A stretch of DNA of 64,000 nucleotides, from NCBI GenBank assembly GCA_964346275.1, contig CAYFUR010000001.1, forward strand, positions 11,793-75,792. Direction: 5' to 3'. Below the pieces are notes generated by a model. It was given only the letters and a program-made list of their open reading frames with translations, did no database searches and was not told where the DNA came from. The position numbers and the translations under genes were made by a program. Positions 41,892-59,502 of the stretch are shown one piece after another. The number at the start of each line of letters is the position of its first letter. Position 1 is the stretch's first letter. This DNA is from an uncultured Candidatus Sumerlaeota bacterium (GTDB lineage Bacteria; Sumerlaeota; Sumerlaeia; SLMS01).

Positions 41892-41958
41892 ATCGCAGGC
41901 CCTCTTTTCTCAGTTTCCCTTGCTTGACCGCGTCCCCGAATTGAGAGACGCTGGTTCA

Positions 41959-42861
41959 ATGAGTTACGACTGGCGAAAAGAAGATGCGGTTCGAAAGCTT
42001 GTGCGCAGCGGCTATACAGCCTTGCCTCTGGAACGCGATCCGGTCGGGTTGCTGGCCTCTGCTGTGGGTCTGGACAGAGATCGATGTGTCCAGGTTCTCC
42101 GAGAGCTTCATGACCAGGGGTTATTGCTGGGAATCCGTGGCGAACCCAATCCAGCCCTCGGCAGTATGCACGAGACGCTAGTCTGCTCCGCGAAGGATTT
42201 TCCTCCCGTGGGAGAGAGTGGCGCGGCAATTCGCTGGTATGGAAAGACAACGGATGGATCCTGGTGCTTCAGTGCCATGTGGGCTCGCCAGCCAGCGGAG
42301 GAGGGGTCCAGGGGGCATGATTTCACAAAACTTGGCCTGCCGCTTCACGAAGGGCCGCTCCTTGTGCCCTCGGCCGACAGGACCTATCTCGTCCGGGACG
42401 AGGAGGGGGATCTCCCCATGTTGGCGGATTCAGAATCCCAACTGGCCGACCGGCTCTTCTCGCCGATGCTCATTGATCCGGAAAAGGATTTCTGGCTCCA
42501 GGTTGGCGAAGGGATTGAACTGCCTTCCGGCGCAGTGCGCGAAGCCGTTCGAAAGTTGCTTCGCGAGCGGGTCTGGAGGCGCTTTTCGTTCCGATTCGAT
42601 ATGGCGGCCCTTGGATACAATGGATGCGGACTTGCTTTTTGGGATCTGGAAGAGGAGAACCTGTCCGACGCGGCACGGGCATTGGCGGCCCTCGGGGGCA
42701 CCGGTGACGTCTGCGTCCGGCAATCATGCGATCCAGCCCGCGGGAACCTGATGGGGCTTTTCCTTGGCCGTGAGGCTGGCGAAGGGGAAAACGCCGCGGA
42801 GAGCGTCTCCCGGCAATGGGGGCGCCCACTCTCCGGCTGGTTCGATTTAGAACTTCACTAA
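41959..42861 (+). CDS. Degenerate fused AhbA/AhbB (NirDL-like, Lrp/AsnC-related) protein
   Basis: Two wHTH-like halves: LPLERDPVGLLASAVGL...LRELHDQG and FWLQVGEGIEL...VRKLLRERVWRRF...ALGY. Then LAFWDL...AARALAA...NLMGLFLGR, resembling the AhbB C-domain. Start 41959 or 41920. Confidence 0.6.
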   Translation: MSYDWRKEDAVRKLVRSGYTALPLERDPVGLLASAVGLDRDRCVQVLRELHDQGLLLGIRGEPNPALGSMHETLVCSAKDFPPVGESGAAIRWYGKTTDGSWCFSAMWARQPAEEGSRGHDFTKLGLPLHEGPLLVPSADRTYLVRDEEGDLPMLADSESQLADRLFSPMLIDPEKDFWLQVGEGIELPSGAVREAVRKLLRERVWRRFSFRFDMAALGYNGCGLAFWDLEEENLSDAARALAALGGTGDVCVRQSCDPARGNLMGLFLGREAGEGENAAESVSRQWGRPLSGWFDLELH

Positions 42862-42893
42862 AAGCGGAATGTAACCGAGAGCGAAAACGGTTC

Positions 42894-45800
42894 ATGGGAA
42901 CATACGGCGATAAACCTCTCTCCCGTTTCAAAACCTGGCGTCTGAAAAGGCGTTTCTATTGGATCACAGGCGTGATTCTCTTTGTAACGGGGGCGCTGCT
43001 GCTGGCGGCCATTCTGGCCTTCAAATCGGAAACCTTCTGGCGCAAATTTGTCATCCCCCGTTATTTTGGTCCATATTGGGAAACCGCCATTTCCTGGGAC
43101 AGTTTCGATCCTCACCTTGTCCCGCCGGGGATTTACATTGAAGGGCTCAATCTCCACGAACCAAATGCCCCAACGAAAAGCGTACTCCGTGTCGAAAAGC
43201 TGGATCTTCTCGCGACGATCGATTCCCTTGTCGCGGATATAGACATCCGGGAAGTCGATATTGAAGGCGTTTCAGCCAACGTCGTTCAGTATGGGCCCGA
43301 GGACACCAACCTGAGCCGTTTCGTGGAAAGAGTCTATCAGGGGCTTCCTCCTCCGGCTGCCGGAACGGAACTCCCCGGGCCCCACAGGGTGATTCCGGAG
43401 ATCAAGACTCCGGCTCAGATCAAGCTCCCTGGTGTGTCCCTTCGATACGAGAATCGCGTGGACCCCCATCGCGTCGTTTCATTCGGATACGTCGTGAATC
43501 AGGACGTTCTCATCGACGTTTACAGCCCGGATGACGAAGAAGACGGCCTCTTTCATGAGCAATTCGCAATTCGATCGGAGGGAGAGCTGGCCCTGGCCGT
43601 CGATGGAACCCGTATTCAAAACAACCTGCGGCTCAATATTGTTGCGGATTCCTTGAAGGACTTTCCCGATTGTGATCTCCAGGTTGCGGCGACTCTTTTC
43701 CCCATTGAAGCAGGCGACGCCACGCCCGCGGTCGAAGCGGAATTTCGAACCCCGCTTGTCCGCACCCCGATTCGACTGGCCGCGGTGCCCATCGAGGACC
43801 TGAGTCTTCGTTTCCACCGCGATCGGGATGCCCGTGCCATCGCCAGCCTTGAAGCAGAAATCTTCGATCCTCTCACAGGGGAAATCCGAGGCGACTTCCT
43901 CCTCGATGGGAATTCGCGCGACATCGTTTCGACAATCGGCCGGTTTTTGCCGGAAGACCTCCGGCGCGACTTTGAAACTTATATCAAGACGTCCGCATTC
44001 GATTACTATGTGCCCGAGGAAAGCGGCGGCGCCCATTTCCAGTCAGAGATTTCCCTGGATGCCAAAGGCATGCTTCAGTACGCCATCGTTGATGAGGAAG
44101 AAGACCTCCCTCTTGAGCTCACGACGTCAGGATGGATACGCGCCTTCGGAATGGAGTTTGGTACGCGCCAGGAATTGCGCGCGAACCTTCTTTCCGGCGT
44201 GCAGGAGAAAGACGTCGACGGAAAAACCGTCACCGGCGATGCCGATATTCGATGGCATTTAAACCTGAACGACAAACAGAAGAAGGGGTCCGGCTGGCTC
44301 CTCTCGGACTGGGCCCCAACAAGCTCCGACGAGGGACAGACGACGCTCACGCTTTCATTGAAAAAGCAGGGAACCGAAAGAGAGCCCGTGGATTTCAGCT
44401 ATGCGGGCCCGGTGAGTTGGCAAGCGATCAAGGAAATGCTGAGAGGGTTTCCTCCCGATCTGCCGATGTTCGCCATCCTCCCCTCTCCGAAAGGCTACGA
44501 TGAAGGTTACGGCGAGACGCTCGCTTCATTCTTTGAAACGTTTCAGGCCGTCTTTACCTCGAATGCCGAGTTGAAGCAGGACCTCACTGTCCATGACAGC
44601 AGCCTGCTGGAATATCTTCTTCAGCCAGGTGTCGTTGGAAACTTTCAGGTTGAGAAGGGCGAATTCGACTTCTTTCTGGCCCATGATCCCGCCGAGGGGT
44701 TTACGCAGATCGGGGAGGCCATCGCTGTCGAGGGAATCGCTCTCGAGGGCGTTTCTGCCCCCGTCGATATCGACGTTTCGATCGAAGCTCTCGCAAACGA
44801 TTCCCGCCTTTATGCGAGCCAGTTCGAGTCGAGTATACGTCCTGCTTCCGCCCTCGGCGAGAGAGGCCGGCTTTTTTCCATGAAGCTCGCCCGCAGCGGA
44901 CCCAATGAGGAGCTGGGGCCGCTGCCGCCAACCTATTTGAATTACCGCACGGGCGAAGGCCAATTCGCCATTCGGATGGAGGATATCCAGCAGGAAGCCC
45001 TCGACGTCCTCACACGATTAAAGGTTCTCGGGTTGTCTGAACGCCTGAGCGGGAAAGCCTATACGGACCTCCAGAGGCTTCTCGATGCAGCCAGGGAAAA
45101 GAATCGCAAGAATGGGGAGGCCGATCTCTTTCTCAGCGGGAAAATAGGCGAGGACCTTCAGCTCTCCTCGGTGATTCTCCTTCGTGATATCCCCCTCGTC
45201 GAAATTCTCAGGCTTCCTTGGGATCAAGAATCAGCCGCGAAGCGGTATATGAGCCGCGTTGAAAACGAGCTTCTTTACAACCTTGAGCAAGAATCAATCG
45301 GGCTCCGCCGGCTTGCCTTCGATATCTTTCCCGACGGAGATGATCAGCTTCTTTTTCGCTCTCGCCTGGAGAGTTCCGAGGAACTTCTCATCGGTGTCAG
45401 GGACATGGAAGAGTTCCTGGATGAGCAGATTTTGTCTATCAGTTCCGGTGAGCTTTCCGACTTATCCCTCGAGCAGGCTTTGGCCCTCGCCTTCACGAGG
45501 GCGGAGGAATTGCGTTCCGAGCTGAGAGGCGGCGATGCCAGTGTGGTCTTGCTTCTTCCCGATATCTCAGTCCCTGCTTTGCGCGGGATCATTCCGGCAT
45601 CGCATATCCCGGTGACGGCCGGCACGGGAAATGTCTATCTCGAAATCCCCGTCAATCGGCAGGAAGCCCCGTTAGAAGCTCGCGGACGTTTTTCGATAAC
45701 CCGAATGAGACTGGAAGGGTTGAAAGAGCCTGTTCCACAGATTCGCGGTGAGTTCAAACTTTCCCTGGAAGAGGGATATCTCCAACTGGAAGAGCTTGTC

Positions 45801-48353
45801 ACGACGCTTCCCTTCTCGGAAGGCGAAGGAGAAACGCATATACGTTTCAGCTCGCGCCACCATTTGGAAAGTGACCGTTTTTTAGCGGACCTGGAAGTGG
45901 ATCTTGTTGGAAAACCGGCTCTCGCGGTCCTTGAGAACATTGGTTCGGGGGTCGGTGAGGCGACTGAACTCTTTCAATTTCTTCCGACGATCCAGCTCGG
46001 CGATTTGGCTTCTCCCCAGGGGCAGATGCGCCTGAAATATGAAATCGAGCGCCAGGAAGCCGGAGGGCCCGTCGTCGTCAGCTCCCTCCAGGAGGGGCGG
46101 AACTTCAGCATCCTGCCCGCCTTGTTCGGCCCCTTTCATTTTCGCGTCAGCCAGGAGCTGGTTTACCAGAATGACGGATCATTTGTTCTCTCGCGGTTAG
46201 ACGGAAAAGTCTCCGAAATGGCTCCCGAGCCTTTAGTCTGTGAGTTTGATCTGAAAGAAGCTGTCCCTTTTAACAGCGAGGGCGGTGCTTTGAACTCTTC
46301 CTCGATCCAAATCGATTTGACAAAGAACCTGACGGCGCTTTCCGGCCGCTCGGCACAGGTCTTTTTCGATCTGATGGATATTCACCTGGAGAGCGGCTGG
46401 CTTGAAGGGCATTTCGACATTGCCGTCTCTGCGACAAAGGAGGGCCGAGCATCGACGGCGCGTCGCCTGGAAAACTCCTTCTCACTGAACTTGAGGAATC
46501 TTCGACTGCGCGGCGCAAATCAACCGCTCGAGGGTGTCTTCACGGGCCTTCTTGTGACTGAGGGACAGCGCTTTGCAGCGCGCGATCTCATGCTCTCGTT
46601 GAAAGGCGGGGAAGAAGAGGCCGGGAGGCTTGAGGGCGCGTTGGCGCTGGACACAAACAGCAACGAACTGGACTTCCGCCTCGATGTGGCGGACTTCCAG
46701 GGTCCACTTCTCAAGGCTCTCCCTTTTCCCGTTTCTGTGCTCGGGGATGATCCTCAAACGCGTCTCCACGGGCGCGCCGATATCAGCACCGACCTGGATG
46801 AATCTCGAGGGCGCATGGATCTCGCGTTAAGGCTTCGTGATTTTTCCCCCCGGCGAGCCGCGCTGGAAGAGGAGACAGATGACTCACCCGAGGAACCCGT
46901 TCAGTTGGATATCAACGTTGCATCCACTTTTGATCGGGCAACATCCACTGTCCTTCTCCAGGATATTTCCGCACAAGCCGTTTCGGGCCGCATCAACGCG
47001 CCCGGCCAGAACATTCCCATTTCCTCTGATCTCCCCCGGTTCCTGACAATTGATGAACTGGGAGCTATTTCCTTCGACCTCGGGTCTTTGGGATTCACCG
47101 GCACGGAAGCGGAGGAGTCGGGAATCAAAGTCGTACTGGGCCCGATCGATATAGAACCTTATTCCCCCCTGCTCATGAGGTTGGCCGGAATACCTCTCGA
47201 GCAGGGAATCCTTTCTGGTGAAGGAACGGTCGTGGGAATGGGGCCAGAGACGCAGCCGACCATCGCCGTGGATTGGCGCGCCAATCTGGAAAATGGGCTA
47301 TGGAAAGAGAGCAGCGGGCGCCAGGTTCCCCTGAATGCCTTTTTCCAGCTACGTGGAGAGACGCGTCCCGGCATCTTCCGCATCGAAGAATTTGATGCGG
47401 ATCTTGTTTACAACCAGGGCGTGCCAAGGGGGCGTGACCACCTGGGCGCCACGGGCTTCTATGAAACAAGTGGCGGCAAGCACTCTCTCGTGGCGAATGT
47501 GGAATCGGATGAATTGGTTCTTTCCAGGGTGCTCAGACGAGTCAGCGAGATCCAGGAGAACCTCAAACCCACAGAGACAAAGGAACAATCAGGGCGCACA
47601 AAAGACGTCTGGACGATGCCCTCCAATTTTGAAGCTTCAGTTTCGGGAGCGCTTCAAAATATTTATTTTCGTGAACTCTGGCTCCCCCTGTCACGCTTTC
47701 AGGCGGACATCGAGAATCAGCACGTTTACCTTCGCGAAGCCTTTTTCCGTCCTGAGGAGGGGGTCATTCAGGCCGCCGGCACATTGGACTTTTCGTCTTC
47801 CCGAAATCCCTGGACCCTTCATCTCGACATGGAGCGCCTGAATGCCAGGGCCTGGGTGAACAGCCTGGCGCCCGCCGCCTATTACGGCGACATCAGCGGG
47901 AGTCTTTCCGCAACCGCCGATCTCGCAGCCGAGGGCCTTCATTCCGTGGACCTGCGTGAAAGCCTGAACGGCAGAATCTCTTTCCAGATGAAGGGAGTTC
48001 AGTTCCGTGAAGGCAAAGTGGTTGATCTTCTGGACGAAACGATTCCCCTCGATGCCGATGGAGTGATTACTGTCCGCAACAACAGGGCGCAATTCGAAAT
48101 GGGAACACCCTGGAATCCCGCCCGGACTCTTTTTCTCCAGGGAACGGCGCGGCCGATCATTCCGCCCCCAGGGCAATCGCCGCACTATCGCGCCTTGATC
48201 GATTACCGCCGCACCTCGACTGTCGGGCCGGAATACCGTCGCGAAGAAGGAAAGGCAGCGCGTCAGGAACTCTATGGCATGTTGCTCGAGGTAGAGGGCA
48301 TCCTTCGTTCCGGTGATGAACCGCGGGTCAATCTCCGGACGATGGCCTATTAG
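42894..48353 (+). CDS. Very large AsmA-like (repeating beta-groove) envelope protein
   Basis: Single N-terminal TM anchor. AsmA-like N-terminus GIYIEGLNLHEP...VLRVEKLDL...IREVDIEG...TNL. About 1800 aa of beta-rich sequence. AsmA-like C-terminus GVIQAAGTLDF...ISGSLSATADL...LNGRISF. Confidence 0.72.
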   Translation: MGTYGDKPLSRFKTWRLKRRFYWITGVILFVTGALLLAAILAFKSETFWRKFVIPRYFGPYWETAISWDSFDPHLVPPGIYIEGLNLHEPNAPTKSVLRVEKLDLLATIDSLVADIDIREVDIEGVSANVVQYGPEDTNLSRFVERVYQGLPPPAAGTELPGPHRVIPEIKTPAQIKLPGVSLRYENRVDPHRVVSFGYVVNQDVLIDVYSPDDEEDGLFHEQFAIRSEGELALAVDGTRIQNNLRLNIVADSLKDFPDCDLQVAATLFPIEAGDATPAVEAEFRTPLVRTPIRLAAVPIEDLSLRFHRDRDARAIASLEAEIFDPLTGEIRGDFLLDGNSRDIVSTIGRFLPEDLRRDFETYIKTSAFDYYVPEESGGAHFQSEISLDAKGMLQYAIVDEEEDLPLELTTSGWIRAFGMEFGTRQELRANLLSGVQEKDVDGKTVTGDADIRWHLNLNDKQKKGSGWLLSDWAPTSSDEGQTTLTLSLKKQGTEREPVDFSYAGPVSWQAIKEMLRGFPPDLPMFAILPSPKGYDEGYGETLASFFETFQAVFTSNAELKQDLTVHDSSLLEYLLQPGVVGNFQVEKGEFDFFLAHDPAEGFTQIGEAIAVEGIALEGVSAPVDIDVSIEALANDSRLYASQFESSIRPASALGERGRLFSMKLARSGPNEELGPLPPTYLNYRTGEGQFAIRMEDIQQEALDVLTRLKVLGLSERLSGKAYTDLQRLLDAAREKNRKNGEADLFLSGKIGEDLQLSSVILLRDIPLVEILRLPWDQESAAKRYMSRVENELLYNLEQESIGLRRLAFDIFPDGDDQLLFRSRLESSEELLIGVRDMEEFLDEQILSISSGELSDLSLEQALALAFTRAEELRSELRGGDASVVLLLPDISVPALRGIIPASHIPVTAGTGNVYLEIPVNRQEAPLEARGRFSITRMRLEGLKEPVPQIRGEFKLSLEEGYLQLEELVTTLPFSEGEGETHIRFSSRHHLESDRFLADLEVDLVGKPALAVLENIGSGVGEATELFQFLPTIQLGDLASPQGQMRLKYEIERQEAGGPVVVSSLQEGRNFSILPALFGPFHFRVSQELVYQNDGSFVLSRLDGKVSEMAPEPLVCEFDLKEAVPFNSEGGALNSSSIQIDLTKNLTALSGRSAQVFFDLMDIHLESGWLEGHFDIAVSATKEGRASTARRLENSFSLNLRNLRLRGANQPLEGVFTGLLVTEGQRFAARDLMLSLKGGEEEAGRLEGALALDTNSNELDFRLDVADFQGPLLKALPFPVSVLGDDPQTRLHGRADISTDLDESRGRMDLALRLRDFSPRRAALEEETDDSPEEPVQLDINVASTFDRATSTVLLQDISAQAVSGRINAPGQNIPISSDLPRFLTIDELGAISFDLGSLGFTGTEAEESGIKVVLGPIDIEPYSPLLMRLAGIPLEQGILSGEGTVVGMGPETQPTIAVDWRANLENGLWKESSGRQVPLNAFFQLRGETRPGIFRIEEFDADLVYNQGVPRGRDHLGATGFYETSGGKHSLVANVESDELVLSRVLRRVSEIQENLKPTETKEQSGRTKDVWTMPSNFEASVSGALQNIYFRELWLPLSRFQADIENQHVYLREAFFRPEEGVIQAAGTLDFSSSRNPWTLHLDMERLNARAWVNSLAPAAYYGDISGSLSATADLAAEGLHSVDLRESLNGRISFQMKGVQFREGKVVDLLDETIPLDADGVITVRNNRAQFEMGTPWNPARTLFLQGTARPIIPPPGQSPHYRALIDYRRTSTVGPEYRREEGKAARQELYGMLLEVEGILRSGDEPRVNLRTMAY

Positions 48354-48568
48354 GAGTTTTCTTCAGATGGCTCGAAAAAAAGCACTTGGAGGGCGAGAAT
48401 CTTTTGACCACCGGGTGCCTTGCGGCTGATCTTTCGCTTGAGGGACACGGGCGCCGCTGTTTGAATCCTCGCCAGGAACGAATGAGTTGCGCCCTCTTTT
48501 TTTTTCTGAATGACTGCCTTAACTGAGTTGAAACGAAACAGATTCTCAATCGCCATAGCGTGCTGCCA

Positions 48569-50836
48569 ATGAAAGCCGAGCAAGCGACAAAGGCCGTTTT
48601 CTCATCTCTCTGTGTCATGGTCTTCCTGGGCCTTGCGGCACTTGCCGCAGCCCAGCAGGGAGTCTGGCGCGTGGAAGTCCTCTCCGGGATGAGTGAGCAG
48701 GAGGCGGAAGCCCGAGTCCAAAGCCTCGCGGGAATCGAAGACGTTCAGATTCTTCCCTACCAGGGTGACTATGGAATCTTCATCGGCGAATATGCGACGG
48801 AGGCAGAAGCCCGCGAGGCCGCACGGCAATTAACGGAGAATGAGGGGGTCATTCCCCAGGGGCAGGCCTTCTTTCCAGGTGAATCACTGGCTTCCCAGGA
48901 TGATACAGAGCCAACGGGCGCAGAGGATGGCCGATACCGCGTTCTTGTCGATTCCTTTACAACACAGAGCGCCGCCCAGAGCCGGAGAACAGAATTGGAA
49001 CGGCAGGGGGTCTTCCCTGTTGATATCCTCCAGCGCGGAGACTTTTTCCAGGTCTTCGCTGGCTACGAATACGCGAGTCGATCTCAGGCGGAGAATTATT
49101 ATCAAAGCCTGAGGGAAGATCCGAGCCTGAATACGGCGGGTTTCACGGGAGTGGAAGACCTGACGCAGCCGGTGCAAACTCCCGAGACGGACCCCGATCA
49201 ACTCCGTCAATACGCGAGCTGGGTCGAAGAAGCCCTCCAGCAAGGCAACCTCAATCGCGCCGAGCAGTTGCTCGATGAATGGGAAGAGGCGGAACCGGGG
49301 AACGTGATTGCCAATGAACTGCGCCAGGACCTGCAGGAGAGGCGCGCAGAACAGCAATCCGCGGAGGCTGAGGCAAGCCGCTACGAAGAAATGAAAACGG
49401 AAGCCCAGCAGGCGGAACAAGCCCGGAACTATGATGAAGCCATTCGCCTCTGGCAGGAAATTGCCCGCCTGCCGAATGTCCGCCCGGAGCAGCGCCTGGA
49501 GGCCCGTCAAAACATCGAACGGATCAATGACGTGCGATTTGAGCCCACAGGCACTCCAGTCACCACGGACGACGGCCAGGAGGGTGGCGGGGCAATGAGC
49601 CCCGGGGTATTGATTGCGGTTCTTGCTGGCGGCCTTTTGCTCGTCGCCGGCGGAGTTTTCTTTTTCCTGCGCTCGAGAGGCTCCAAGCCCGCGCCGCGCC
49701 CGGCAGCCGCGGGCACTCCGTCCGCAAGCTCCCTTGGCGGACTCGAAAGCGGCGGTGGGATGGCCTTGCCCTCGGCATCCCCGCCGACAGAAAAGGAAAA
49801 ACCGGCTCAGCAGAAAAAAGAACAAAAGAGGGCCGCCCCAACTCCGAAAAAAGAAAAACGCAAAGAGAAACCTGGGCCCACACCCGCGACCGAAGTAGAT
49901 GAGGACGACAGCGTCTCGCTGGAAATGGAAGAGGTGGAAGAAGCGCCCAGGACAGAACCGGAGTCTGCTCCCGCGGGCGCTGAGGCGCCTTCAGAGGGAG
50001 AAGGCGTGGCGTTGGAAGAATTTGAGCCCGAAACGGAAAAAGAGCCCGAGCCCGCGCCATCGGAGCCGGCAAAAGCCGAGCAGGAGCCTTCAGGCGCGCC
50101 GCGGCGTGACAGCACCGATCAAAAGCGTATTCCGATTATGCGGGAGGGTTCGGAGTCCGAAGAAACGGCAGCGGAGAAGGAAGCTCCAGCCGCAACTCAG
50201 CAGCAACCAGCGCCCGGAGAGCAGAAGCCCGAGCCCAAACAGCAAGTCCTTTCCCGTCCTGGCCACGTTGTCTTTTACGAGCAGAATTTCAACGAAGAGA
50301 ACGCCGGCGAGATGCCCAAGAACTGGAAGGGGTCCTACGACTATGCCTCCCTTTCGATCGTGGATCGGGAGGATGAAGTCGGCGGCCGATGCATGAAGTT
50401 CGATAAGGAAAAGGGCACCGGCAGCGCCTATTATTCCTGCCGTTTCCCTGATGCATCCGGAAGAATCGCCATCGAGTTCGATCTTCGCTGTGACCACAAA
50501 AACAAGTATCTTCTCGGCTTCTATATCGAGAAAGACGAGGACTTCCGACAGTCCGTCCATACCGTCGTTCATCGGGACATTTCCAAAGCCGACAAGGTGA
50601 CTCTGCGCGTCCAGAATGAGCCAACAGCTTACGAATTGGGCAAGTGGGTCCATATCCGCATGCTGATCGATTTGCCGCGAAATATGATCGATGGCCACGT
50701 CAACGGAGAGGCAGTGGCTATGGGCGTACGCCTGGCCTCGCGCCCCAAGGTCCTCAACACGCTCTCGATTCGAGACAACCTCGCCACCGAAGGAACGCTC
50801 CTCATCGATAATATCCGGATTTATCAGGATCGCTGA
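48569..50836 (+). CDS. Bitopic protein: signal peptide, 2 SPOR-like domains, TPR-like helices, TM, Pro/Glu-rich linker, C-terminal concanavalin A/LamG-like jelly roll
   Basis: WRVEVLSGMSEQEAEA...YGIFIGEYATEAEAREA and YRVLVDSFTTQSAAQ...FQVFAGYEYASRSQA (SPOR-like). TM GVLIAVLAGGLLLVAGGVFFFL followed by RSR. C-terminal FYEQNF...IEFD...GKWVHI...GHVNG...IDNIRI. Confidence 0.75.
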   Translation: MKAEQATKAVFSSLCVMVFLGLAALAAAQQGVWRVEVLSGMSEQEAEARVQSLAGIEDVQILPYQGDYGIFIGEYATEAEAREAARQLTENEGVIPQGQAFFPGESLASQDDTEPTGAEDGRYRVLVDSFTTQSAAQSRRTELERQGVFPVDILQRGDFFQVFAGYEYASRSQAENYYQSLREDPSLNTAGFTGVEDLTQPVQTPETDPDQLRQYASWVEEALQQGNLNRAEQLLDEWEEAEPGNVIANELRQDLQERRAEQQSAEAEASRYEEMKTEAQQAEQARNYDEAIRLWQEIARLPNVRPEQRLEARQNIERINDVRFEPTGTPVTTDDGQEGGGAMSPGVLIAVLAGGLLLVAGGVFFFLRSRGSKPAPRPAAAGTPSASSLGGLESGGGMALPSASPPTEKEKPAQQKKEQKRAAPTPKKEKRKEKPGPTPATEVDEDDSVSLEMEEVEEAPRTEPESAPAGAEAPSEGEGVALEEFEPETEKEPEPAPSEPAKAEQEPSGAPRRDSTDQKRIPIMREGSESEETAAEKEAPAATQQQPAPGEQKPEPKQQVLSRPGHVVFYEQNFNEENAGEMPKNWKGSYDYASLSIVDREDEVGGRCMKFDKEKGTGSAYYSCRFPDASGRIAIEFDLRCDHKNKYLLGFYIEKDEDFRQSVHTVVHRDISKADKVTLRVQNEPTAYELGKWVHIRMLIDLPRNMIDGHVNGEAVAMGVRLASRPKVLNTLSIRDNLATEGTLLIDNIRIYQDR

Positions 50837-50870
50837 TCGAGGAATTCAGGGGCGGAGAGCCACGTAATTG

Positions 50871-50899
50871 TAGACAACAGAGCCGCCCCTTTCGATACT
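50871..50899 (+). promoter_or_regulatory. Possible sigma70 promoter of the giant TPR gene
   Basis: TAGACA, 17-bp spacer, GATACT. Confidence 0.3.
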
Positions 50900-50991
50900 A
50901 CTCTCAGTAGGCGAGGCATTCTTTTTGGACTCGCTTCCCTCATTGTATTGAATTCGATTTTTCTCGGGCAAATGATGGCCCTGGATGATTT

Positions 50992-53900
50992 ATGGGCAAT
51001 GCCTTTCAAGACCTGACAAGCTGGGTGAACGATTCGCTCAAGGCGCAGTCGCTGCTCCAATACCTCATTGGGTCGGATGACGACATCTCAACCTTCGGCG
51101 AAGGCCTGCGCACTTACTGCCCCCTCCACTCCCGGTCCGGCTTCAAATCCCTCCAGGTTGATCCGGCGGAAAACCGCGCGGAGTGCATCCTTCGCCAGTG
51201 TCCGGCCCACGATTCCGTTTCTCTCGTCGAACTCTTTGCCCAGGCGCGGTCTGTGTCCGATCTGGAGGCCGCCCTGGCTATTACACGCATGCAGGACCTG
51301 GATCCCCCGCCCCATCTTCTTGATGGCGTCGCGGAAGAAATGACTTCCAAAGCCCACGATTCCTGGGCAAAGGAAGATCTTCCGGAGTCCCGCCAGCTTA
51401 TACGCGTCGCTCTGATGGCTTCACCGGAATGGCCCGGCGCCCTCGTGCTTCGCGGCAAGCTGGAAGAAGAAGATCAGGACACCCAAAGTGCCGCGGCGAG
51501 TTATCACTCTGCCGCGCAATCCTGCATCGAGAAGAACCTTTTACCCCAGGCGCGGAATATCGTGGAAAAAGACCTTCTTCGCCTGTGTCCCGATGATCCC
51601 GCCGGTCTGGAATTACTGGGGGTCGTCCAACGCCGGGAAGACCCGGAAGGCGGCCAGTCCAGTGCGACGTATCGCAAGCTGGCCCAGATCTACACAGAAA
51701 ATGCAGAAAGCGGCAAAGCCCTCGAAGCGCTTGAGAAAGCAGCTGCCAGTCAGAACGATTCCCCGGAAATACAGCAGGAACTGGCCGACGCACTGACGGA
51801 GGCAGGCCGCAAAGATGAGGCGGAACAGCATTACCGCGCCGCTGCCCACCTCTGGCAAGAGGCGGACAGGCCTCGCAAAGCGCTCCGGTGTCTTTCTCCT
51901 CTCATCCGCGCTCATCCTGCCGACCTGGAGTTGAGAGTCACTTCCGCGCGGCTGAGAGAGACCGTCTCAGACAAAGAAGGGGCAGTTCGGGACCTGGAAG
52001 CCCTGGCTCGAGACGCCATCGCCCGTGAAGATGACGAAACGGCGCAGGATTATCTGAACCGGCTTTTAAATCTGGCGCCCAATCATCTGTATGGGCGGGA
52101 GGCAAGCGCCGAGCTTTGTGGCCGCCAGGCCCGCGTCCAGGCGCAGGTCGACCACTTGTTCGCCGCGATCGAAGCCTTGCTGGAACTGGAACTCTTCGAT
52201 CGCATTCTCGAAATTCTGGAAAAGATCTCGGCCCTGGCCCCCAAGACACTCGAGCAGTCGGAGCGCCTTGGCCATCATTTGGAGAACCTGGGCCGGAATC
52301 CAGAAGCCGCAAACCAATACCTCGCCGTCGCCGAAGGCGAAATAGCCGGTGGACAAGAAGAGAAGGCTCTCGAATTCGCGAAACGAGCCGTGGAGTTGGA
52401 TCCCCTTGATCAGGATCTTGTGCGGCGTTGCGCTGCCCTCCTGTCCGGTGCGGGCCTCCAGGAGCAGTCGTTCTTCCTCATGGAGAGACATACACGCGCG
52501 CTCTTTGAATTTGGCGAAACGGACGGAGCGGAGCGAATGCTTCGCGGCATCACCTCGCAATTTGGTGAACGCGGTGAACTCTCAGACATTCGAATCGCGA
52601 TTCTTCTCGAACAGAGGGATGAAGAAGGCGCTGTTCCGCTGCTGAAGAAAAAACTCGAAGAATCCAATGTGCCAGACGAGACACTCCGCGAACAACTCTT
52701 CCAGGCTGTCGACTTCTTCCCGGAGAATAGAAAGCTCGCCGATGCGTTTCTCGCAGCCGCGCCGGATCTCCCCCAGGGAGAGGCACTCTGTGACCGGCTT
52801 CTGGCCGTCGGGCGTCTAGACGCCCATCCCGTTTCTTTTTGCCTGGACGCCATCGGCCGCGCAATGCACATCCGCTCAGAGGATCCAGAGATCGTCTATA
52901 CAAAGGGCAGTCTTCTGAACGAAAGCAGCAATCCGGCGGAAGCCATCCCGGCTTTCAAGCAGGCGGCTTTTCTCTTTTGGAGAAACGGTGATCCGAAGCG
53001 GGCTGGCGAGGCCGTGGAGGAAGCGCAAAAGGCTGGCGCGAAAGACAAGGAACTGCGGGAGATTCGGGGGTTGATTGCGCTGAAGGCCGGCCGGACAGAA
53101 GAGGGGCGCCAACTGCTCGTTCAATCCATCGAGGACATGATGGAACAAAACCGCCACGGGGAGGTCGCTGAGACCATTGAACGGAGCCGCCGGGAGGTCC
53201 ACTTCGATTCCGAGTATCTTCAGAGGGTGGGGGAGTGGCTTCTCAAACACGAGGAAAAGCAGTCGGCGCTGAATGTCTATATGGCAATCGCCCAGTCGGC
53301 CTGTGATGAAGGCGACTGGGAGGAGGCGGTCGAGAAGCTCGATCATTGCCTGTCGCTGGATTCGGATTCGATCGAAGCGCGCAGGCTGAGGGGGGACGCC
53401 TATCTCTTTCTCGGCGAGGAAGAAAGTGCTGCTCGAGACCTGTCCCATGCCGCATCCGTTTCCCTCGGGGCGGGAAGAAAAGAAGAAGCGGTTTCATGCT
53501 TTGAGATTCTCGAAGCCCATGGGCGGATCGATCCCGAGCAGCGCCTGGAGCTTGCCAGTGCCTATCGGGACCTCAGCCGGATCGATGATGCGAAACGCGT
53601 CCTTAAAGACGCCTTGGAGGAAGCGGCGCCGGAATCGGCCGGAGCCTCCATCGAGCCGATCATTCGCCCGCTTCTCGAACTGGCGAGAGACGACCCCGGG
53701 TTGGTTCACTTTGCTGCGAAAAGGGCTGAGGCGCTGGGAGAATCTGCGCTTGCAGTGGAGGCCTGGAGTATCAAGGCGGATCGTGAACTCCAGGTCGGAA
53801 ACCACGCAGCGTGTATAGAAGCGCTTCGCGAGGCCTGCCGTCTTGCTCCCGAAGAGATAGAGTGCCGAAAGAAACTGATTCGGGAACTGGCAGCCCAATC

Positions 53901-56900
53901 CAATTGGATCGAACTTCGAGAGGCGCTGCAAGGGGACCTGGATTCCAGGCCAGTGGAAGAAGCGGCTGGAATCTATGATGCCTTGGACGAGGAAAGCAAG
54001 AAACGGCCTGAGATCCTGGAAATCCTTGGCGAACTGGAAAACCTCCGCGGAAATTCAAGCCGTGCTATCGAGATTTGGGAGAGCGCCCTTCGGTTTTCGC
54101 AGGATGAGGAAGAGGAAGAAAGGCCCGCCGATCTTTCTTTGCTCCGCCGGCTTGCCGCTGCGGCAGGGAATGACATAACGCATCAGAAAAGATATCTCGA
54201 TGCCCTCGAAAAAGAGGAGGATCGAGAAGCCTGGATTGAACAGGCCTTGCTGGTGCTCAAATTGTATTTCGACAAAGGGCAGAACGAAGAGGGAGAGCGG
54301 CTGGCGGAAAAGATCCAATCCGCGCTTGGCCGTGGATGGTCTCAAATGAAAAGATTGGCAATGGCGCTCTCCGGGTCTGGACGGCCGAAACACGCCGCGG
54401 GCCTCGCCAGTAAGGCGCTTGATCAGGAAGGCATTTCCACGGAAGACACGATCGAAGCCTGCGAATTTCAGATCGCGCAGGGAGCCGCCTCCGAGGTTGT
54501 TTACCGGCGTTTGTCCCAGGCTCAGGAGAATGCTGGGAATCTGGAAGCTGCCGCGGAAGCGATGCTTCGTGCTATAGAGTATCTGTATAGACAAGGCGAC
54601 TCTGCTGAAGCCGTTGCCCTGAGCAGGGAAGGTTTCGAGAAATATCCCTCAAGCCGCGAGATGGAAAAAGTCCTCTTCGATGGCCTTTTGCTGGAAGGTG
54701 ATCTGGAGGCAGCCTCATTCCGCGCGGATTCACTTTGCGAAGCACATTGCGAGGAAGAAAAGTGGGAAGACGCAGAGTCAATCGCTTGCCTGATGGCCGA
54801 GGCGAGCCCAGCAAATCTGAAAGATCGGCGCCGCCTCGCCGACATTCAGAGGAAAGCCGGAAAAACCAATGACGCCGTGTCCGGTTTGCTGGAATTCGCT
54901 GATCTAACCTCGGACAAAGAGGAGGAAGATAGCCGGGAAGCTCTCGAACTGGCGTGCGAATACGCTCCCGAAAGCGGACCTGCTCACGAGTCCCTGGCCC
55001 AGCTTCTGGAAAGGGCGGGCGAACGGGGCAGGGCGTTGCAGCATTACCGCAAGGCTTTCGACTGTCTCGGAGATGAACATGAGGAAGAAAAAACCGAGAG
55101 CTTGCTCAAATCCATCTTGAATCTCGATCCGGAAGACACGGAATCAAGAGAGCGATTGGCTCGTCATTACTTGGATAAGAAGAAAAAAATTCGTGCTCTG
55201 GAGCAGTTCCAGATACTCGCGAGAGCGTTCGAGGAAAAGGAGGAACCGGCCGCCAGGCGCACTGATCTTTACGAAGAGATCCTTCGAATCGATCATGAGG
55301 ATCTCGAAAATCGCAAGAAACTCGCTATCCTCCTCAGCGAATCGAATGATGCCCCCCGTGCCATTCCTCACTGGGTCGAGGTGGTGGAGCTTCGCCTGGA
55401 GAAGGAGGAGGATCCCTCGCAGGCGCTGGCTGAAACAGTCGAGGCTCTTTCCCACTTTCCAGAAAGCCCGGAACTGCGGACCCTGAAAGCCGATCAGCAC
55501 TTTAACTACCACGAATATGAAGAATACATTCAAGAAATCACAGGGCTGATTCACGACCAGCTTGGCAAGGCGGGAAGCGAGGAAGCTTTTGAGCTACTGC
55601 GCCACAGCTGCTCTCAGCTCATCAGGGAAAAACGCTTTGAGGAAACGTGGTCTCTTCTCGGCGAGTTCCCCCAGTTGTTAAAGGATTTTCCTGACCTGGA
55701 ACGTTTTACGGCCCTGGCGCTGGAAGGCTGCGGCAAGGAGGCGGAGGCTGCCGTCTCATGGCTGGTTCTGGCCGATTTCCATCTGGAGAAGAATCGCCCC
55801 GAGGAAGAAATTACGGCACTGCGCCGCTCCGTTGCCCTGAAACCCCGAGACGCCTCCTTGCGGCGCCGGCTGATCGAAGCCCTCGAACGCCAGGAAGAAA
55901 GCCCTGGAGAAGCGCTTCTGGGAGAATATCGCGAGCTTGCCGAACTCCTTGAAAGCTCCGAACCATCGGAGGCGATCAGTCTTTACCAAGAGATTCTGGA
56001 GAGAGACGATCAGAACGCGGATGTTTTGGGCCGGACTGGCCGTCTTCTTGATCAGGAAGGGCGTATAGACGAGGCCGCGGATTACTATCTGCGTCTTGGC
56101 AGAGTTTGCGAAGAATCAGGACATCTGGAAACCGCGGAACGGACCTATCGCCAGGTTTTTGAAAAAGCTCCCGATGATCTCGAGGTGTCCCGTTCCCTTC
56201 TGGAAATCTATGAAAAGTCGCAAAAGCGCGAAGATTATCTGGCATTGGCCCCTCGTGTAGCCCGGCTTCTGGATGAGCAGGGCGACAAGCGGGAAGCGCT
56301 TGAAATCTGGAAACAGATTGCCTGGAGAGAAGATCAAAATCGGGAGGCGCGCCAGCATATCGCCAATCTCTATCAGGAACTTGGGAAAATCAGCGAGGCC
56401 TGCGCGGCGCTGCGGGAATACGTGCGCATCGCCTCCGATGAAGGGGCGAATGACGAGGCTTTCAAGGCCTTGGACCAATTGGAGGATCTCTGCGCGGAAA
56501 ATGCCGAAGGCCTGGTCGAAACCGCCCGGCATCACGAGGAGCGCGACTCTCTGGTCCGGGCCGCGGCATGCCGAATAAAGGCTGCCCGCCTTTACAGCCA
56601 GGAAGGAGAAAAGGCCAGTGCTCTGCGAGAAGCCGCCCTGGCGCAGGAACTTGATTCCTGGTCAGCGGACCTTCTTCAAGAGGCTGCCGGGATATACGGG
56701 CTTCTTGATGAACACGAGTCCGCGGCGCAGGCCTGGTTTGCTGCCGCCGAGCGATACAAAGAGGCTGGAGAAACTCAGGATGAAGCGAATGCCCTGGCAG
56801 AGGGCCTGGAATTCGCGCTGCTTCCCGATAAGCTGCATCGCCGCGCCGAGTTGCTGGAACTGGATGAACAGCACTCGGAGGCAGCGAGCCTCTATGCGCA

Positions 56901-59502
56901 GGCGGCGGATGCCTGGATCGCCGAGGGGAGCTTCGACAAAGCAGAGGCCGCGGCGGAGAAGTCCCAGGCCTTGGCGCCCGGGTCCATTCCCGTATGTCAA
57001 ACTCTGATCAATGTCTATCTCACCTTGCAAAAGTGGGAAGATGCGGTTTCACCAGCGCTTTTCCTGGGCGAGCATTACGTCGAGAAGGGTGAACGGGATC
57101 GAGCGATCGACACGGTGAAGTGGGTCGTCGAACGAATCTCGGGAGCGGAAGCCCTCGTTGGCGCTGGAAGGATTTTGCGCCAGGCGGAGGAATCTTCTGC
57201 GGCGACAGCCGCTTACGTGGAGGCGGAAAAGCGCGCAAAGAACGAAGAGCGGGAGGACTTGCTGGAAGAGAGCCTTCTCGCCCTGGCGGAGTTGAATCCG
57301 AACGATCCCAATGCTCTTTCAAAGGCGGGCCAGTCTCTTCACAAACAGGGTCATGACGAGCGGGCCAGCGCTCTTTATTTAGCCCGGTTCGAGCACTTCC
57401 TCGAAGCAGCGGAAATTCAAACCGCACGGCAAGTGTTTGATGAAGGCCTTGAGCTTGTGGAGGACAAACTCCCCCTGCGGCGCGAGGGGGCGCGGCTTTA
57501 CAAGGAACATGAAATCCCCGAGTTGGCCGCCAAAGAGCTTCGGGCCATTGCCACCGAGCTTGTGCGTCGTGGCGAAAAAGCGGAAGCGCTCGGAGTCGTG
57601 ACTGAAGCGCAATCCCTGCGGCCCAATGATCTCGGGCTCACAGAGCTTTACTTCGAACTCAGCGCGGATCTGGGACACGACGAAACGGCACTTCAGATTG
57701 CGGATCAATTGACGGCTGTCTATCTCGGCCAGGATGAACGGGGCAAAGCCCTTGATCTCTTGAGAAAGCTCATCGAACTGCGCCCTGACGATCCCCAGCC
57801 GCGTGCTCGATTGGTGCGGATTCTCCAGTCGGAAGGAGGGGAAACTCTTCTGGCGCGGGAATACCGCGACCTGGCGGAGCTTTATATACAGTTGGAACAT
57901 GATGAAGAGGCCGCCCAAGCCCTCCGCGATCTGCTTGATGTCACACCGGGAGACACCGCGGCACGCAAGCTGTATATCGAAACTTATCGAAAGTTTGGCC
58001 CGGAAGAGGATCTGGTCGGGGATTATCTGACGCTGGCGGAAAGCCAGGCGCGTTTAAATCGAATGGATGACGCCCGGTCGAATTTCGATCGGGCCGTTGA
58101 GATCTCCTCGGAAAAGAGCGAGCCCCTTTCCCGCTTTCTGGAGTTTCTCGTCAGCCAGGGGGAAGCCGATGAAGCCGTTCAAGTCGCCTTGCGGCTGATC
58201 GATGCCTTACTCGCGGAAGGCCATCCTCAGAGGGCGCGGGAAGTGGTTTCTCGATTGGATTCTTTCGGAAAAGCCTCCGCGGATTTCCAGCTCGCGGCAG
58301 CCCGCGTGTATCGGGAAGTCAAATCGCTCGGCAATGCCTCCCGGGCTCTTCAGAGGGCCGCCTCGCTTTTCTCAGAATATGCCGACCACGCGCGGGAGGC
58401 GAAAGCCTATGGCCAGTTGGCAGAAATCGATCCGCAGAACCTTGAGAACCGGAGGATGCTTGTCGAGGCACTCCAGCGTGCGCGGATGGAAGAAGAAGCA
58501 CTCGAAGAGAGTAAGAAGCTCGCTCGTGTCTATGCAGAGCGGGGCATGTTTGACCTTGCAGAAACCCAATACCGCGAAATTCTGCAGCGAGCACCCGGGG
58601 AAGAGGAAATCTGGAAAGCTCTCTTTTCGATGCAAACGGAACAGGACCGCATGGCGGAAATGATCCCCGATTATCTGGACTACGCCGACATGCTGGCCCA
58701 GAAGGGGGAGGCGGGAAAGGCGATCGAGTATTATTTAAATGTTCTCGAACTGGATCCACGAAATCTCCGCGCTCACCGTGGCTACGTCACCCAGTATCCG
58801 AAAATCGGCAAGCAACGCGATATAATCGACGTGATTCTCACCTTTGCCCAACTCCTCCTCGAGGAGGGAGAGGTCGACGAGGGAATCAGGTATTTTGAAC
58901 TGATTATGGCGATCGATCCGCAGAACACGGTCGCTCGAGACATGCTGTCGTCCACTCAATCCCGTGGCAAACCGGCAGGAAAACCAGACGAGAAAGAGGA
59001 GGGCGAGGACGACAAGCTCGCTCTGGACGAGCTGGATATTTCTGGTACGCAGCAGAAAATGATTTCTTCGTCGGGGATCTCGCCGTCGGATTTTCTCATG
59101 GGCGCCATCGATGAAATGGAGCGGAACGAAAGCGAGCAAACGCTCAAACAGATCGAGCAGAATTATCGAGATATCCTTGCCGTGAACCCCAATAATGCAG
59201 GGGTCCGTCTCAAGCTGGCCGATGTTCTCAGCCAGATGAAACGCTCCCCGGAAATGATGGACCAACTCGACCAGGCAGCGGAGATGTTTTTTAATAAGGG
59301 CGAGCTTCGCCAGTGCATTTCGACCTGCGAAAGAATCCTCAAGCACAACCCCAGTGCCGGCAAAGCCCGCAAACGGATGAACGAAGCCATTCTGAAACAG
59401 GACGCATTTAAGGCTCTGGAGTCCGCAATTCTCTTCAGTGATCAGCCGGAAACAGATCCGCCCAAGTCATCGGGAGGAGGCTCCCAGAAGACGACGGACT
59501 AG
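50992..59502 (+). CDS. Giant (2836 aa) TPR-repeat protein with N-terminal CHC2-type zinc finger
   Basis: CPLH-x18-C-x4-C at aa 43-70, followed by SLVELF...SDLEAALAI helices. The rest is helical repeats with frequent A..Y...L.LDP.. TPR signatures. No signal peptide or TM segment. Confidence 0.85.
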   Translation: MGNAFQDLTSWVNDSLKAQSLLQYLIGSDDDISTFGEGLRTYCPLHSRSGFKSLQVDPAENRAECILRQCPAHDSVSLVELFAQARSVSDLEAALAITRMQDLDPPPHLLDGVAEEMTSKAHDSWAKEDLPESRQLIRVALMASPEWPGALVLRGKLEEEDQDTQSAAASYHSAAQSCIEKNLLPQARNIVEKDLLRLCPDDPAGLELLGVVQRREDPEGGQSSATYRKLAQIYTENAESGKALEALEKAAASQNDSPEIQQELADALTEAGRKDEAEQHYRAAAHLWQEADRPRKALRCLSPLIRAHPADLELRVTSARLRETVSDKEGAVRDLEALARDAIAREDDETAQDYLNRLLNLAPNHLYGREASAELCGRQARVQAQVDHLFAAIEALLELELFDRILEILEKISALAPKTLEQSERLGHHLENLGRNPEAANQYLAVAEGEIAGGQEEKALEFAKRAVELDPLDQDLVRRCAALLSGAGLQEQSFFLMERHTRALFEFGETDGAERMLRGITSQFGERGELSDIRIAILLEQRDEEGAVPLLKKKLEESNVPDETLREQLFQAVDFFPENRKLADAFLAAAPDLPQGEALCDRLLAVGRLDAHPVSFCLDAIGRAMHIRSEDPEIVYTKGSLLNESSNPAEAIPAFKQAAFLFWRNGDPKRAGEAVEEAQKAGAKDKELREIRGLIALKAGRTEEGRQLLVQSIEDMMEQNRHGEVAETIERSRREVHFDSEYLQRVGEWLLKHEEKQSALNVYMAIAQSACDEGDWEEAVEKLDHCLSLDSDSIEARRLRGDAYLFLGEEESAARDLSHAASVSLGAGRKEEAVSCFEILEAHGRIDPEQRLELASAYRDLSRIDDAKRVLKDALEEAAPESAGASIEPIIRPLLELARDDPGLVHFAAKRAEALGESALAVEAWSIKADRELQVGNHAACIEALREACRLAPEEIECRKKLIRELAAQSNWIELREALQGDLDSRPVEEAAGIYDALDEESKKRPEILEILGELENLRGNSSRAIEIWESALRFSQDEEEEERPADLSLLRRLAAAAGNDITHQKRYLDALEKEEDREAWIEQALLVLKLYFDKGQNEEGERLAEKIQSALGRGWSQMKRLAMALSGSGRPKHAAGLASKALDQEGISTEDTIEACEFQIAQGAASEVVYRRLSQAQENAGNLEAAAEAMLRAIEYLYRQGDSAEAVALSREGFEKYPSSREMEKVLFDGLLLEGDLEAASFRADSLCEAHCEEEKWEDAESIACLMAEASPANLKDRRRLADIQRKAGKTNDAVSGLLEFADLTSDKEEEDSREALELACEYAPESGPAHESLAQLLERAGERGRALQHYRKAFDCLGDEHEEEKTESLLKSILNLDPEDTESRERLARHYLDKKKKIRALEQFQILARAFEEKEEPAARRTDLYEEILRIDHEDLENRKKLAILLSESNDAPRAIPHWVEVVELRLEKEEDPSQALAETVEALSHFPESPELRTLKADQHFNYHEYEEYIQEITGLIHDQLGKAGSEEAFELLRHSCSQLIREKRFEETWSLLGEFPQLLKDFPDLERFTALALEGCGKEAEAAVSWLVLADFHLEKNRPEEEITALRRSVALKPRDASLRRRLIEALERQEESPGEALLGEYRELAELLESSEPSEAISLYQEILERDDQNADVLGRTGRLLDQEGRIDEAADYYLRLGRVCEESGHLETAERTYRQVFEKAPDDLEVSRSLLEIYEKSQKREDYLALAPRVARLLDEQGDKREALEIWKQIAWREDQNREARQHIANLYQELGKISEACAALREYVRIASDEGANDEAFKALDQLEDLCAENAEGLVETARHHEERDSLVRAAACRIKAARLYSQEGEKASALREAALAQELDSWSADLLQEAAGIYGLLDEHESAAQAWFAAAERYKEAGETQDEANALAEGLEFALLPDKLHRRAELLELDEQHSEAASLYAQAADAWIAEGSFDKAEAAAEKSQALAPGSIPVCQTLINVYLTLQKWEDAVSPALFLGEHYVEKGERDRAIDTVKWVVERISGAEALVGAGRILRQAEESSAATAAYVEAEKRAKNEEREDLLEESLLALAELNPNDPNALSKAGQSLHKQGHDERASALYLARFEHFLEAAEIQTARQVFDEGLELVEDKLPLRREGARLYKEHEIPELAAKELRAIATELVRRGEKAEALGVVTEAQSLRPNDLGLTELYFELSADLGHDETALQIADQLTAVYLGQDERGKALDLLRKLIELRPDDPQPRARLVRILQSEGGETLLAREYRDLAELYIQLEHDEEAAQALRDLLDVTPGDTAARKLYIETYRKFGPEEDLVGDYLTLAESQARLNRMDDARSNFDRAVEISSEKSEPLSRFLEFLVSQGEADEAVQVALRLIDALLAEGHPQRAREVVSRLDSFGKASADFQLAAARVYREVKSLGNASRALQRAASLFSEYADHAREAKAYGQLAEIDPQNLENRRMLVEALQRARMEEEALEESKKLARVYAERGMFDLAETQYREILQRAPGEEEIWKALFSMQTEQDRMAEMIPDYLDYADMLAQKGEAGKAIEYYLNVLELDPRNLRAHRGYVTQYPKIGKQRDIIDVILTFAQLLLEEGEVDEGIRYFELIMAIDPQNTVARDMLSSTQSRGKPAGKPDEKEEGEDDKLALDELDISGTQQKMISSSGISPSDFLMGAIDEMERNESEQTLKQIEQNYRDILAVNPNNAGVRLKLADVLSQMKRSPEMMDQLDQAAEMFFNKGELRQCISTCERILKHNPSAGKARKRMNEAILKQDAFKALESAILFSDQPETDPPKSSGGGSQKTTD

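Follow-up and report, generated by a model that had tools for sequence, protein, structure and literature searches.

The window analysed here is a stretch of 64,000 nucleotides (nt) from a metagenome-assembled genome (MAG) of a member of the uncultured phylum Sumerlaeota (BRC1). It covers positions 11793-75792 of contig C1 in a 3.9-Mb MAG that is 87.65% complete and is divided among 181 contigs. Four adjacent genes on its + strand encode an Lrp/AsnC-type protein (gene 1), an AsmA-like protein (gene 2), a bitopic protein with a SPOR domain (gene 3), and a giant tetratricopeptide repeat (TPR) protein headed by a zinc ribbon (gene 4). An original prediction had joined all four into one system spanning the cell envelope. 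We compared this MAG (G000) with 60 relatives, giving 61 genomes from one class and 16 families (f1 to f16), and the sequence evidence speaks for a cassette made up of genes 3 and 4 only and not for a system of all four. Literature searches on Sumerlaeota and SPOR domains or cell division turned up surveys and genome papers only. Five DNA runs from two studies, of microbial mat metagenomes, match this genome; no RNA run is among those listed.

The four open reading frames (ORFs) on the + strand run from 41920 to 42861, 42816 to 48353, 48560 to 50836, and 50992 to 59502. Alignments with relatives begin at residues 14-27 of the gene 1 ORF, at about residue 26 of the gene 2 ORF, and at about residues 17-19 of the gene 3 ORF, so starts at 41959, 42894, and 48569 fit, as do gaps of 32, 215, and 155 nt between the genes. 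The arrangement originally described, four adjacent and co-directional genes with these gaps, is therefore as stated. The predicted identities of the products also largely hold: gene 1 is AhbB/AhbA-like, if weakly so, gene 2 is AsmA-like with a transmembrane (TM) anchor, gene 3 has a SPOR domain and one TM helix, and gene 4 is a TPR giant. A periplasmic TPR predicted for gene 3 did not survive, as its TPR_14 match is not significant (E 0.44). The two genes of the cassette and their parts are as follows.

48569..50836, + strand: gene 3, bitopic SPOR protein, first part of the core (homology search, Pfam)
48656..48835, + strand: predicted periplasmic SPOR domain, ORF residues 33-92 (PF05036, E 3.9e-11, 43.6 bits)
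49607..49663, + strand: single TM helix, residues 350-368 (Kyte-Doolittle scan)
49664..50272, + strand: low-complexity linker on the cytoplasmic side, with much Pro, Ala, and Glu (orthologue comparison)
50273..50827, + strand: conserved C-terminal cytoplasmic domain of about 185 amino acids (aa), residues 572-756 (19-sequence alignment)
50992..59502, + strand: gene 4, soluble acidic TPR protein of 2,836 aa, second part of the core (TPR families in Pfam and NCBIfam)
50992..51291, + strand: N-terminal divergent zinc ribbon of the CHC2 (DnaG) type, C43-x2-H46-x18-C65-x4-C70 (orthologue alignment, profile)

The complete four-gene order was found in two of the 61 genomes, G000 and G008, and the AsmA-like gene stands beside the SPOR gene in five; gene order and co-occurrence thus split the block. 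The expected conservation across relatives was borne out for genes 3 and 4 and failed for genes 1 and 2. The SPOR protein was found in 59 of the 61 genomes, and in the other two (G028, 72% complete, and G034, 93% complete) a profile search did not find its C-terminal domain either. By a hand count from homology searches with gene 3, gene 4, and the zinc-ribbon profile, gene 3 is immediately followed, on its own strand, by gene 4 or the zinc-ribbon start of gene 4 in 30 of these 59 genomes, which represent 11 of the 16 families. The adjacent pairs occur in 8 of 10 relatives in f1, in f2, in one of two genomes in f4, in both f5 genomes that hold the gene, in one of two in f6, in all seven in f7, in f9 and f10, in both in f12, in all three in f14, and in both in f16. 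A collection of species representatives gave a similar picture: 54 loci encode the full gene 3 C-terminal domain, three of them with less than 1 kb of downstream sequence, and in 26 of the 54 a zinc-ribbon-TPR ORF follows 35-293 nt downstream on the same strand. The profile used on these loci missed the giant of G008, whose zinc ligands are degenerate.

When ORFs were clustered over 20 loci, only genes 3 and 4 were widely common. The genes upstream of the SPOR gene vary by family and include those for Memo-like, NADH dehydrogenase, epimerase, radical SAM, and MqnA-like proteins and methyltransferases; further upstream neighbours in the various families are GT1/GT4, S13 peptidase, PMT_2, SAM synthetase, polysaccharide deacetylase, and a BamA-like gene together with AcrB. 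Because these neighbours differ between families, the gene 3-gene 4 pair appears to outlast local rearrangement. Persistence of a gene pair amid turnover of its neighbours is commonly read as pointing to functional coupling, and the case for selection on the pair rests on this contrast with scrambled flanks and not on the count of adjacent pairs.

Gene 3 encodes the only SPOR match in the window's own genome, which also has FtsZ and five Amidase_3 matches. The domain scores 43.6 bits against the Pfam cut-off of 21 bits and thus belongs to the family; it was present in 18 of 18 orthologues scanned, in 17 of them over the cut-off. A second, weaker SPOR stretch was also found in the protein, and a phmmer search of the PDB with the SPOR region gave no match. 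We called hydrophobic helices by Kyte-Doolittle scan. Gene 3 has an N-terminal hydrophobic, signal-like segment at residues 12-30, and each of 21 orthologues has one internal hydrophobic helix followed by a cluster of Lys and Arg. Since the SPOR domain, periplasmic by function, is N-terminal of the helix and the basic cluster follows it, the protein is predicted to have a type I topology with its C terminus in the cytoplasm. The linker beyond the helix is 168-414 aa long in these 21 orthologues and has a net negative charge in 16. Across 167 tails it shows no conserved motif, and residues 572-756 are strongly conserved.

Those residues form the best-conserved part of the gene 3 protein, with a mean column identity of 57% and 23 invariant columns among 19 sequences. 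The domain is single-copy in the window's own genome. A search of 1.84 billion proteins gave 158 representatives of it at E<=1e-30; the 150 of these that were listed all have it at the C terminus, and they are fragments or proteins no longer than 1,382 aa. Public records name the relatives of gene 3 "hypothetical" or "SPOR domain-containing", or give them the automatic names FtsN, DedD, or TPR. Their named source organisms are Sumerlaeota except for one partial "Poribacteria" record, and the cassette has been seen so far almost only in Sumerlaeota. For the jelly roll of the original prediction the Pfam matches are weak: Laminin_G_3 was matched by 6 of the 19 members (best E 0.0027) and CBM_4_9 by two, none over the cut-off, and a profile of the domain gave a chance-level match only in the PDB (SAHS4, E 0.31). 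No catalytic family matched in either search. Hydrophobic residues alternate in some dozen short stretches of the sequence, and, read in this way, the domain is probably a beta sandwich.

Eight orthologues of gene 3 (loci L015, L016, L017, L018, L023, L024, L025, and L028) have an extra periplasmic beta-sandwich domain of about 205 aa in front of the SPOR domains, which the window's copy lacks. A profile of this extra domain matches the CBM66 module of levanase (4azz_A, E 3.4e-9), and one of the eight orthologues passes the cut-off for 3-keto-disaccharide hydrolase. We considered whether the C-terminal domain is a duplicate of this CBM66-like domain; hhalign gave 10% probability over 19 columns, which is no evidence for it.

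The gene 4 product consists of TPRs throughout and is 20% Asp plus Glu. A hydropathy scan found no hydrophobic segment, TM helix, or signal peptide. Giant TPR proteins of this kind are 2,400-3,800 aa long, and the best-conserved stretches of gene 4 are residues 1-100, 2300-2400, and 2600-2650. Within the first of these, C43, H46, C65, and C70 are invariant in 13 orthologues. The top two PDB matches of the zinc-ribbon profile are zinc-binding domains of DnaG (2au3_A, E 0.024; 1d0q_A, E 1.4), the profile also matches the genome's own DnaG (E 2.9e-5), and PF01807 matches 7 of 11 orthologous N termini (best E 2.1e-6). From these matches we infer that the head of gene 4 is a divergent CHC2 zinc ribbon. 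It shares with the DnaG CHC2 family the pattern CP-x-H ... C ... C; it differs in its C-x4-C spacing, where DnaG has C-x2-C, and in being attached to TPR arrays and not to a primase core. The CHC2 finger originally proposed thus stands for the family, with the reservations that the spacing is unusual and that the window's own ribbon, too divergent for the model, has no Pfam match at E<=10. Of two protein homologue searches, the one with gene 4 residues 1-120 recovered gene 4 alone, and the one with the zinc-ribbon alignment found eight matches.

The zinc ribbon is not confined to the giant. Its profile finds one to four paralogues per genome in 60 of the 61 genomes, and in the window's own genome it finds four in addition to DnaG. 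Apart from the giant, these include a ribbon-TPR protein of 508 aa on C4 (L102:5252-6778); a stand-alone ribbon of 141 aa on C10 (L103:4855-5280), directly upstream of a gene for a Na/H exchanger-TrkA_N-PTS_EIIA protein; and a ribbon-TPR-DnaA protein of 1,396 aa on C37 (L104:3990-8180, + strand), which ends in a DnaA ATPase (AAA+) domain and in which the zinc ligands are degenerate. The DnaA domain of this fusion scores 213 bits with PF00308 and shares 46% identity with the genome's canonical DnaA across 236 aa; it corresponds to domain III, keeps Walker A and B, and is without the DNA-binding domain IV. A second DnaA-domain match, in an open frame of at least 900 aa, is present in 53 of the 61 genomes, and where the giant is missing its TPR profile best matches the DnaA-fused paralogue. 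The fusion looks like a phylum-wide, Hda-like paralogue of DnaA set on a TPR scaffold. The literature searched yielded nothing joining a CHC2 zinc finger with tetratricopeptide repeats, or a DnaA AAA+ domain with tetratricopeptide repeats and a zinc ribbon. For the link to the chromosome that formed part of the original prediction, the DnaG-type ribbon and the DnaA-bearing closest paralogue offer some footing, as an indirect hint.

Upstream of the cassette lie genes 1 and 2 and the spacer that separates them from it.

41959..42861, + strand: gene 1, 300-aa two-unit Lrp/AsnC-type protein, NirDL/AhbAB-like, outside the conserved core (ORF, NCBIfam, PDB match)
42894..48353, + strand: gene 2, AsmA-like protein of about 1,820 aa with an N-terminal TM anchor, a lineage-specific neighbour (Pfam, orthologues, TM scan)
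48449..48507, + strand: terminator-like hairpin with nine U in a row after it, in the spacer of genes 2 and 3 (sequence, fold)

Gene 1 does not qualify in NCBIfam as a siroheme decarboxylase AhbA/AhbB (NirDL): it scores 34.7 bits for AhbB and 30 bits for AhbA, where the equivalog cut-offs are 125 and 140 bits, respectively. Its best solved relative is a fused NirD-like protein (4ch7_A, E 6.8e-6), a kinship at the level of the fold only. The Ahb-like gene is present in 21 of the 61 genomes, all in f1, f3, and f4 (7 of 10, 11 of 11, and 2 of 2 members, respectively, besides the window's own genome). Six genomes hold both this gene and the AsmA-like gene, and in five of them it comes directly before the latter; its neighbours are unrelated genes in six further genomes that were inspected, and in G003 it lies directly upstream of the SPOR gene.

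The window's copy of gene 2 scores 18 bits with AsmA (PF05170, cut-off 29.8 bits) and 14.4 bits with DUF748, both under the cut-off. Four of seven orthologues exceed the AsmA cut-off (39.2, 38.5, 32.8, and 31.5 bits), and one more reaches 29.5 bits. The TM helix is at residues 50-68, after a basic stretch, and a phmmer search of the PDB gave no match. With gene 2 as the query the AsmA-like gene was found in 10 of the 61 genomes, at 23-30% identity. It adjoins the SPOR gene in five of the ten (G000, G001, G006, G008, and G009); the orthologue is on other contigs in G004, G005, G007, and G015, and a weak match in G011 is also elsewhere. Pfam AsmA matches occur in 45 of the 61 genomes, and outside the f1 subset none is beside the SPOR gene. 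Genes 1 and 2 are a separate, looser pair, and only some members of one family have it beside the cassette.

YhdP, TamB, and YdbH, the AsmA-like proteins with which gene 2 may be compared, are described as intermembrane lipid bridges. Gene 2 resembles them in its N-terminal TM anchor, its length of about 1,800 aa, and its C-terminal AsmA match, which is over the cut-off in the four orthologues named above. It differs in that the window's copy falls below the cut-off, in that it evolves fast (23-30% identity within one family of genomes), and in that no gene for an Omp85 or lipoprotein partner is beside it in the window.

Two further observations concern the position upstream of the SPOR gene. 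A 1,873-aa ORF found there in G057 was considered as a hidden AsmA-like gene and is actually an alpha-2-macroglobulin. In G004 the gene directly upstream (L024:9042-11417, - strand) encodes a BamA/TamA-like Omp85 protein with five POTRA domains and is itself preceded by a gene for an AcrB-type pump; the AsmA-like gene of that genome is on another contig.

The hairpin between genes 2 and 3 has a folding energy of -23.5 kcal/mol (z -1.57), and 13 of 200 shuffled sequences fold as well; the corresponding spacers of G001 and G008 contain no similar structure. Whole-spacer folds are no better than those of shuffles (z 0.00 and -0.35). A scan with consensus promoters and terminators returned six promoter-like sites, compared to 4.6 expected; it found nothing in the spacers and missed the gene 2-3 hairpin.

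The order of parts in gene 3 recalls the polar organisers FimV, HubP, and TspA of Pseudomonas, Vibrio, and Shewanella. By the description in two papers, FimV/HubP proteins start with a signal peptide and a domain that binds peptidoglycan and is needed for placement at the pole or septum; a TM helix, an acidic region that varies, and a client-binding TPR at the C terminus follow (PMC12918733, PMC5285504). So far as those descriptions go, gene 3 has the same order of parts. The parts themselves differ: gene 3 has SPOR in place of LysM, its C-terminal module is beta-rich and is not the FimV TPR motif, and the TPR is supplied in trans by the separate, zinc-ribbon-headed giant. No LysM family match was found in gene 3 in Pfam at E<=0.01, and FimV's C-terminal TPR motif (TIGR03504) gave no NCBIfam match in gene 3 and none over the cut-off in its genome. 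As both defining domains fail, gene 3 is not a member of the FimV/HubP family.

FtsN, DedD, and DamX are bitopic proteins with a cytoplasmic N terminus and a periplasmic, C-terminal SPOR domain. Gene 3 shares with them and with RlpA of Escherichia coli a SPOR domain over the Pfam cut-off. Its layout is not that of FtsN, DedD, and DamX, since its SPOR domain is N-terminal, after the signal peptide, and its C terminus is cytoplasmic in all 21 orthologues. It differs from all four also in its large conserved cytoplasmic domain and, in many orthologues, in the added CBM66-like periplasmic domain. The characterised SPOR domains covered by the available text of the relevant papers all bind denuded septal glycan (PMC6895207, 10.1101/2022.07.01.498525). 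A further paper reports type IV pilus genes in all the Sumerlaeota MAGs that it studied (PMC8092238).

Tentatively, and with a little less than even confidence, we read genes 3 and 4 as a transmembrane adaptor of FimV/HubP-like design, anchored to peptidoglycan, and the giant TPR scaffold that it docks. The periplasmic SPOR domain or domains of gene 3 would bind glycan denuded by amidases at the septum or the new pole, an activity that we infer for gene 3 from SPOR domains in general. The TM helix and the long, flexible, mostly acidic linker would carry the conserved, beta-rich C-terminal domain into the cytoplasm, where it would dock the CHC2-TPR giant, as the conserved adjacency of the two genes suggests. 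The docked giant could then act as a scaffold for other clients. We think it doubtful that the system extends to a landmark in which the SPOR protein, as the reader, presents a beta domain that recruits proteins bearing the zinc ribbon as a handle (the giant, the smaller TPR proteins, and the TPR-DnaA protein) and so ties replication control or chromosome position to the division site.

Several observations weigh against the adaptor-and-scaffold reading. The pair is apart in 29 of the 59 genomes, with no adjacent case among 11 genomes of f3, three of f11, seven of f13, or four of f15. In G006 the AsmA-like gene remains beside the SPOR gene and the giant has moved away; in G005 and three f13 genomes the SPOR protein is present and no separate giant was found by the TPR profile. 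About 10 nt past the gene 3 stop begins a GC-rich hairpin whose loop is large and whose U tract is short (z -1.48), although neither this hairpin nor the one between genes 2 and 3 is decisive for transcription. On a tree of the C-terminal domain (45 of the 54 rows, 9 having been dropped for envelopes shorter than 170 aa, and 3 being unlabelled) the adjacency label needs five changes, of which well-supported branches force only two, and none of 500 shuffles of the labels gave a number as low as five. Because so few changes are needed, adjacency is largely inherited by clade. It could then be no more than inherited gene order in a little-sampled phylum, the two proteins acting independently, and the separation of the genes in about half of the genomes would agree with that. 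We consider this improbable, since every other neighbour has turned over between families and the pair has kept the same strand and a spacing of 35-293 nt. The C-terminal domain supplies a different objection: it is 36-69% identical to the window's copy, compared to 20-40% for the TPR protein, and it has many invariant polar residues (D88, K94, N95, E104, D106, R185, D186, and N198 in domain numbering). With such conservation it fits an enzyme, or a partner better conserved than the giant, at least as well as a dock for the giant. Gene 3 may accordingly be a self-sufficient division or cell-wall factor that fills the niche of FtsN, DedD, and DamX as the phylum's only SPOR protein, its cytoplasmic domain acting on a conserved partner such as the divisome or being itself an enzyme, with the giant merely a long-standing or co-regulated neighbour. 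This we hold to be unlikely, yet a serious contender. It agrees with the single SPOR match in a genome that has FtsZ and amidases, with the persistence of the SPOR protein where the giant is missing or the genes are apart, and with the FtsN and DedD names that some sources assign automatically; it has to contend with a topology that is the reverse of those proteins, with an adjacency to the giant that persists across 11 families despite the turnover of other neighbours, and with a C-terminal domain that matches no catalytic family.

Two other explanations keep the idea of a larger assembly. One takes the zinc ribbon to be a handle common to the giant, the TPR protein of about 500 aa, the stand-alone protein of about 140 aa, and the TPR-DnaA(AAA+) protein, by which they would dock on the cytoplasmic domain of the SPOR protein or on single-stranded DNA, coupling replication or the chromosome to the division site. 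The spread of the ribbon paralogues, the DnaA domain III that one of them carries, the long-frame second DnaA match in 53 genomes, and the resemblance of the giant's TPR profile to the DnaA paralogue where the giant is missing all point in this direction, as does the near-universal presence of both the ribbon and the C-terminal domain (in 60 and 59 of the 61 genomes, respectively). These are matters of domain sharing and co-occurrence, however, and near-universal presence does not discriminate; in the genomes inspected no other ribbon paralogue is beside the SPOR gene, and the degenerate ligands in the giant of G008 and in the DnaA fusion of G000 sit poorly with a shared handle. We would thus be surprised if the ribbon served this purpose. 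The other explanation is that of the original prediction, one trans-envelope chain of all four gene products, with the AsmA-like protein as a bridge from the outer membrane, the SPOR domain on peptidoglycan, a passage through the inner membrane, and the TPR protein leading to the nucleoid. In its favour, G000 and G008 have all four genes close together and in one direction, five genomes have the AsmA-like gene immediately before the SPOR gene (G006 despite the giant's move), and the Ahb-like gene of G003 and the BamA-like Omp85 gene of G004 take that same position. The chain is nonetheless highly improbable: the full array is limited to two genomes, the AsmA-like gene is on other contigs in four, the f1 subset apart, none of the AsmA-family matches in 45 genomes adjoins the SPOR gene, the Ahb-like gene occurs in only 21 genomes and mostly stands among other genes, and in the window itself a hairpin and nine U split genes 2 and 3.

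If the adaptor-and-scaffold reading is right, the cassette would be an independent invention of the FimV/HubP principle, in which a TPR hub in the cytoplasm receives a peptidoglycan cue from across the inner membrane. The hub would be built from different parts, namely a SPOR domain, a new beta domain, and a giant TPR protein headed by a zinc ribbon, and it would add a SPOR protein that signals inward to those that act in the periplasm. It would also provide a testable entry to the CHC2-TPR-DnaA proteins, which are present in nearly all genomes of the phylum that were searched. If it is wrong, the window holds a conserved gene pair and, beside it, an AsmA-like gene, neither of them out of the ordinary.

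The surroundings of the four genes in the window include a fifth co-directional ORF just upstream (39717-41891, + strand). It encodes 724 aa with weak matches to a purple-acid-phosphatase N-terminal domain, DUF7800, and metallophosphoesterase, and it overlaps a 449-aa ORF on the opposite strand that has no family match. Beyond it, at 35500-39261 on the - strand, is a gene for a 1,253-aa protein that joins a Ser/Thr protein kinase to WD40 beta-propellers. This gene adjoins mreC (34520-35386), which, with a SEDS gene of the RodA/FtsW type (32848-34011), lies 7-9 kb upstream of the block on the other strand. At the opposite end, two tandem ABC exporter genes (ABC_membrane plus ABC_tran; 59499-63346, - strand) converge with gene 4 at its end. 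The SPOR gene of G005 is followed directly by two ORFs of about 600 aa each, similar in size to these exporters, in the usual place of the giant.

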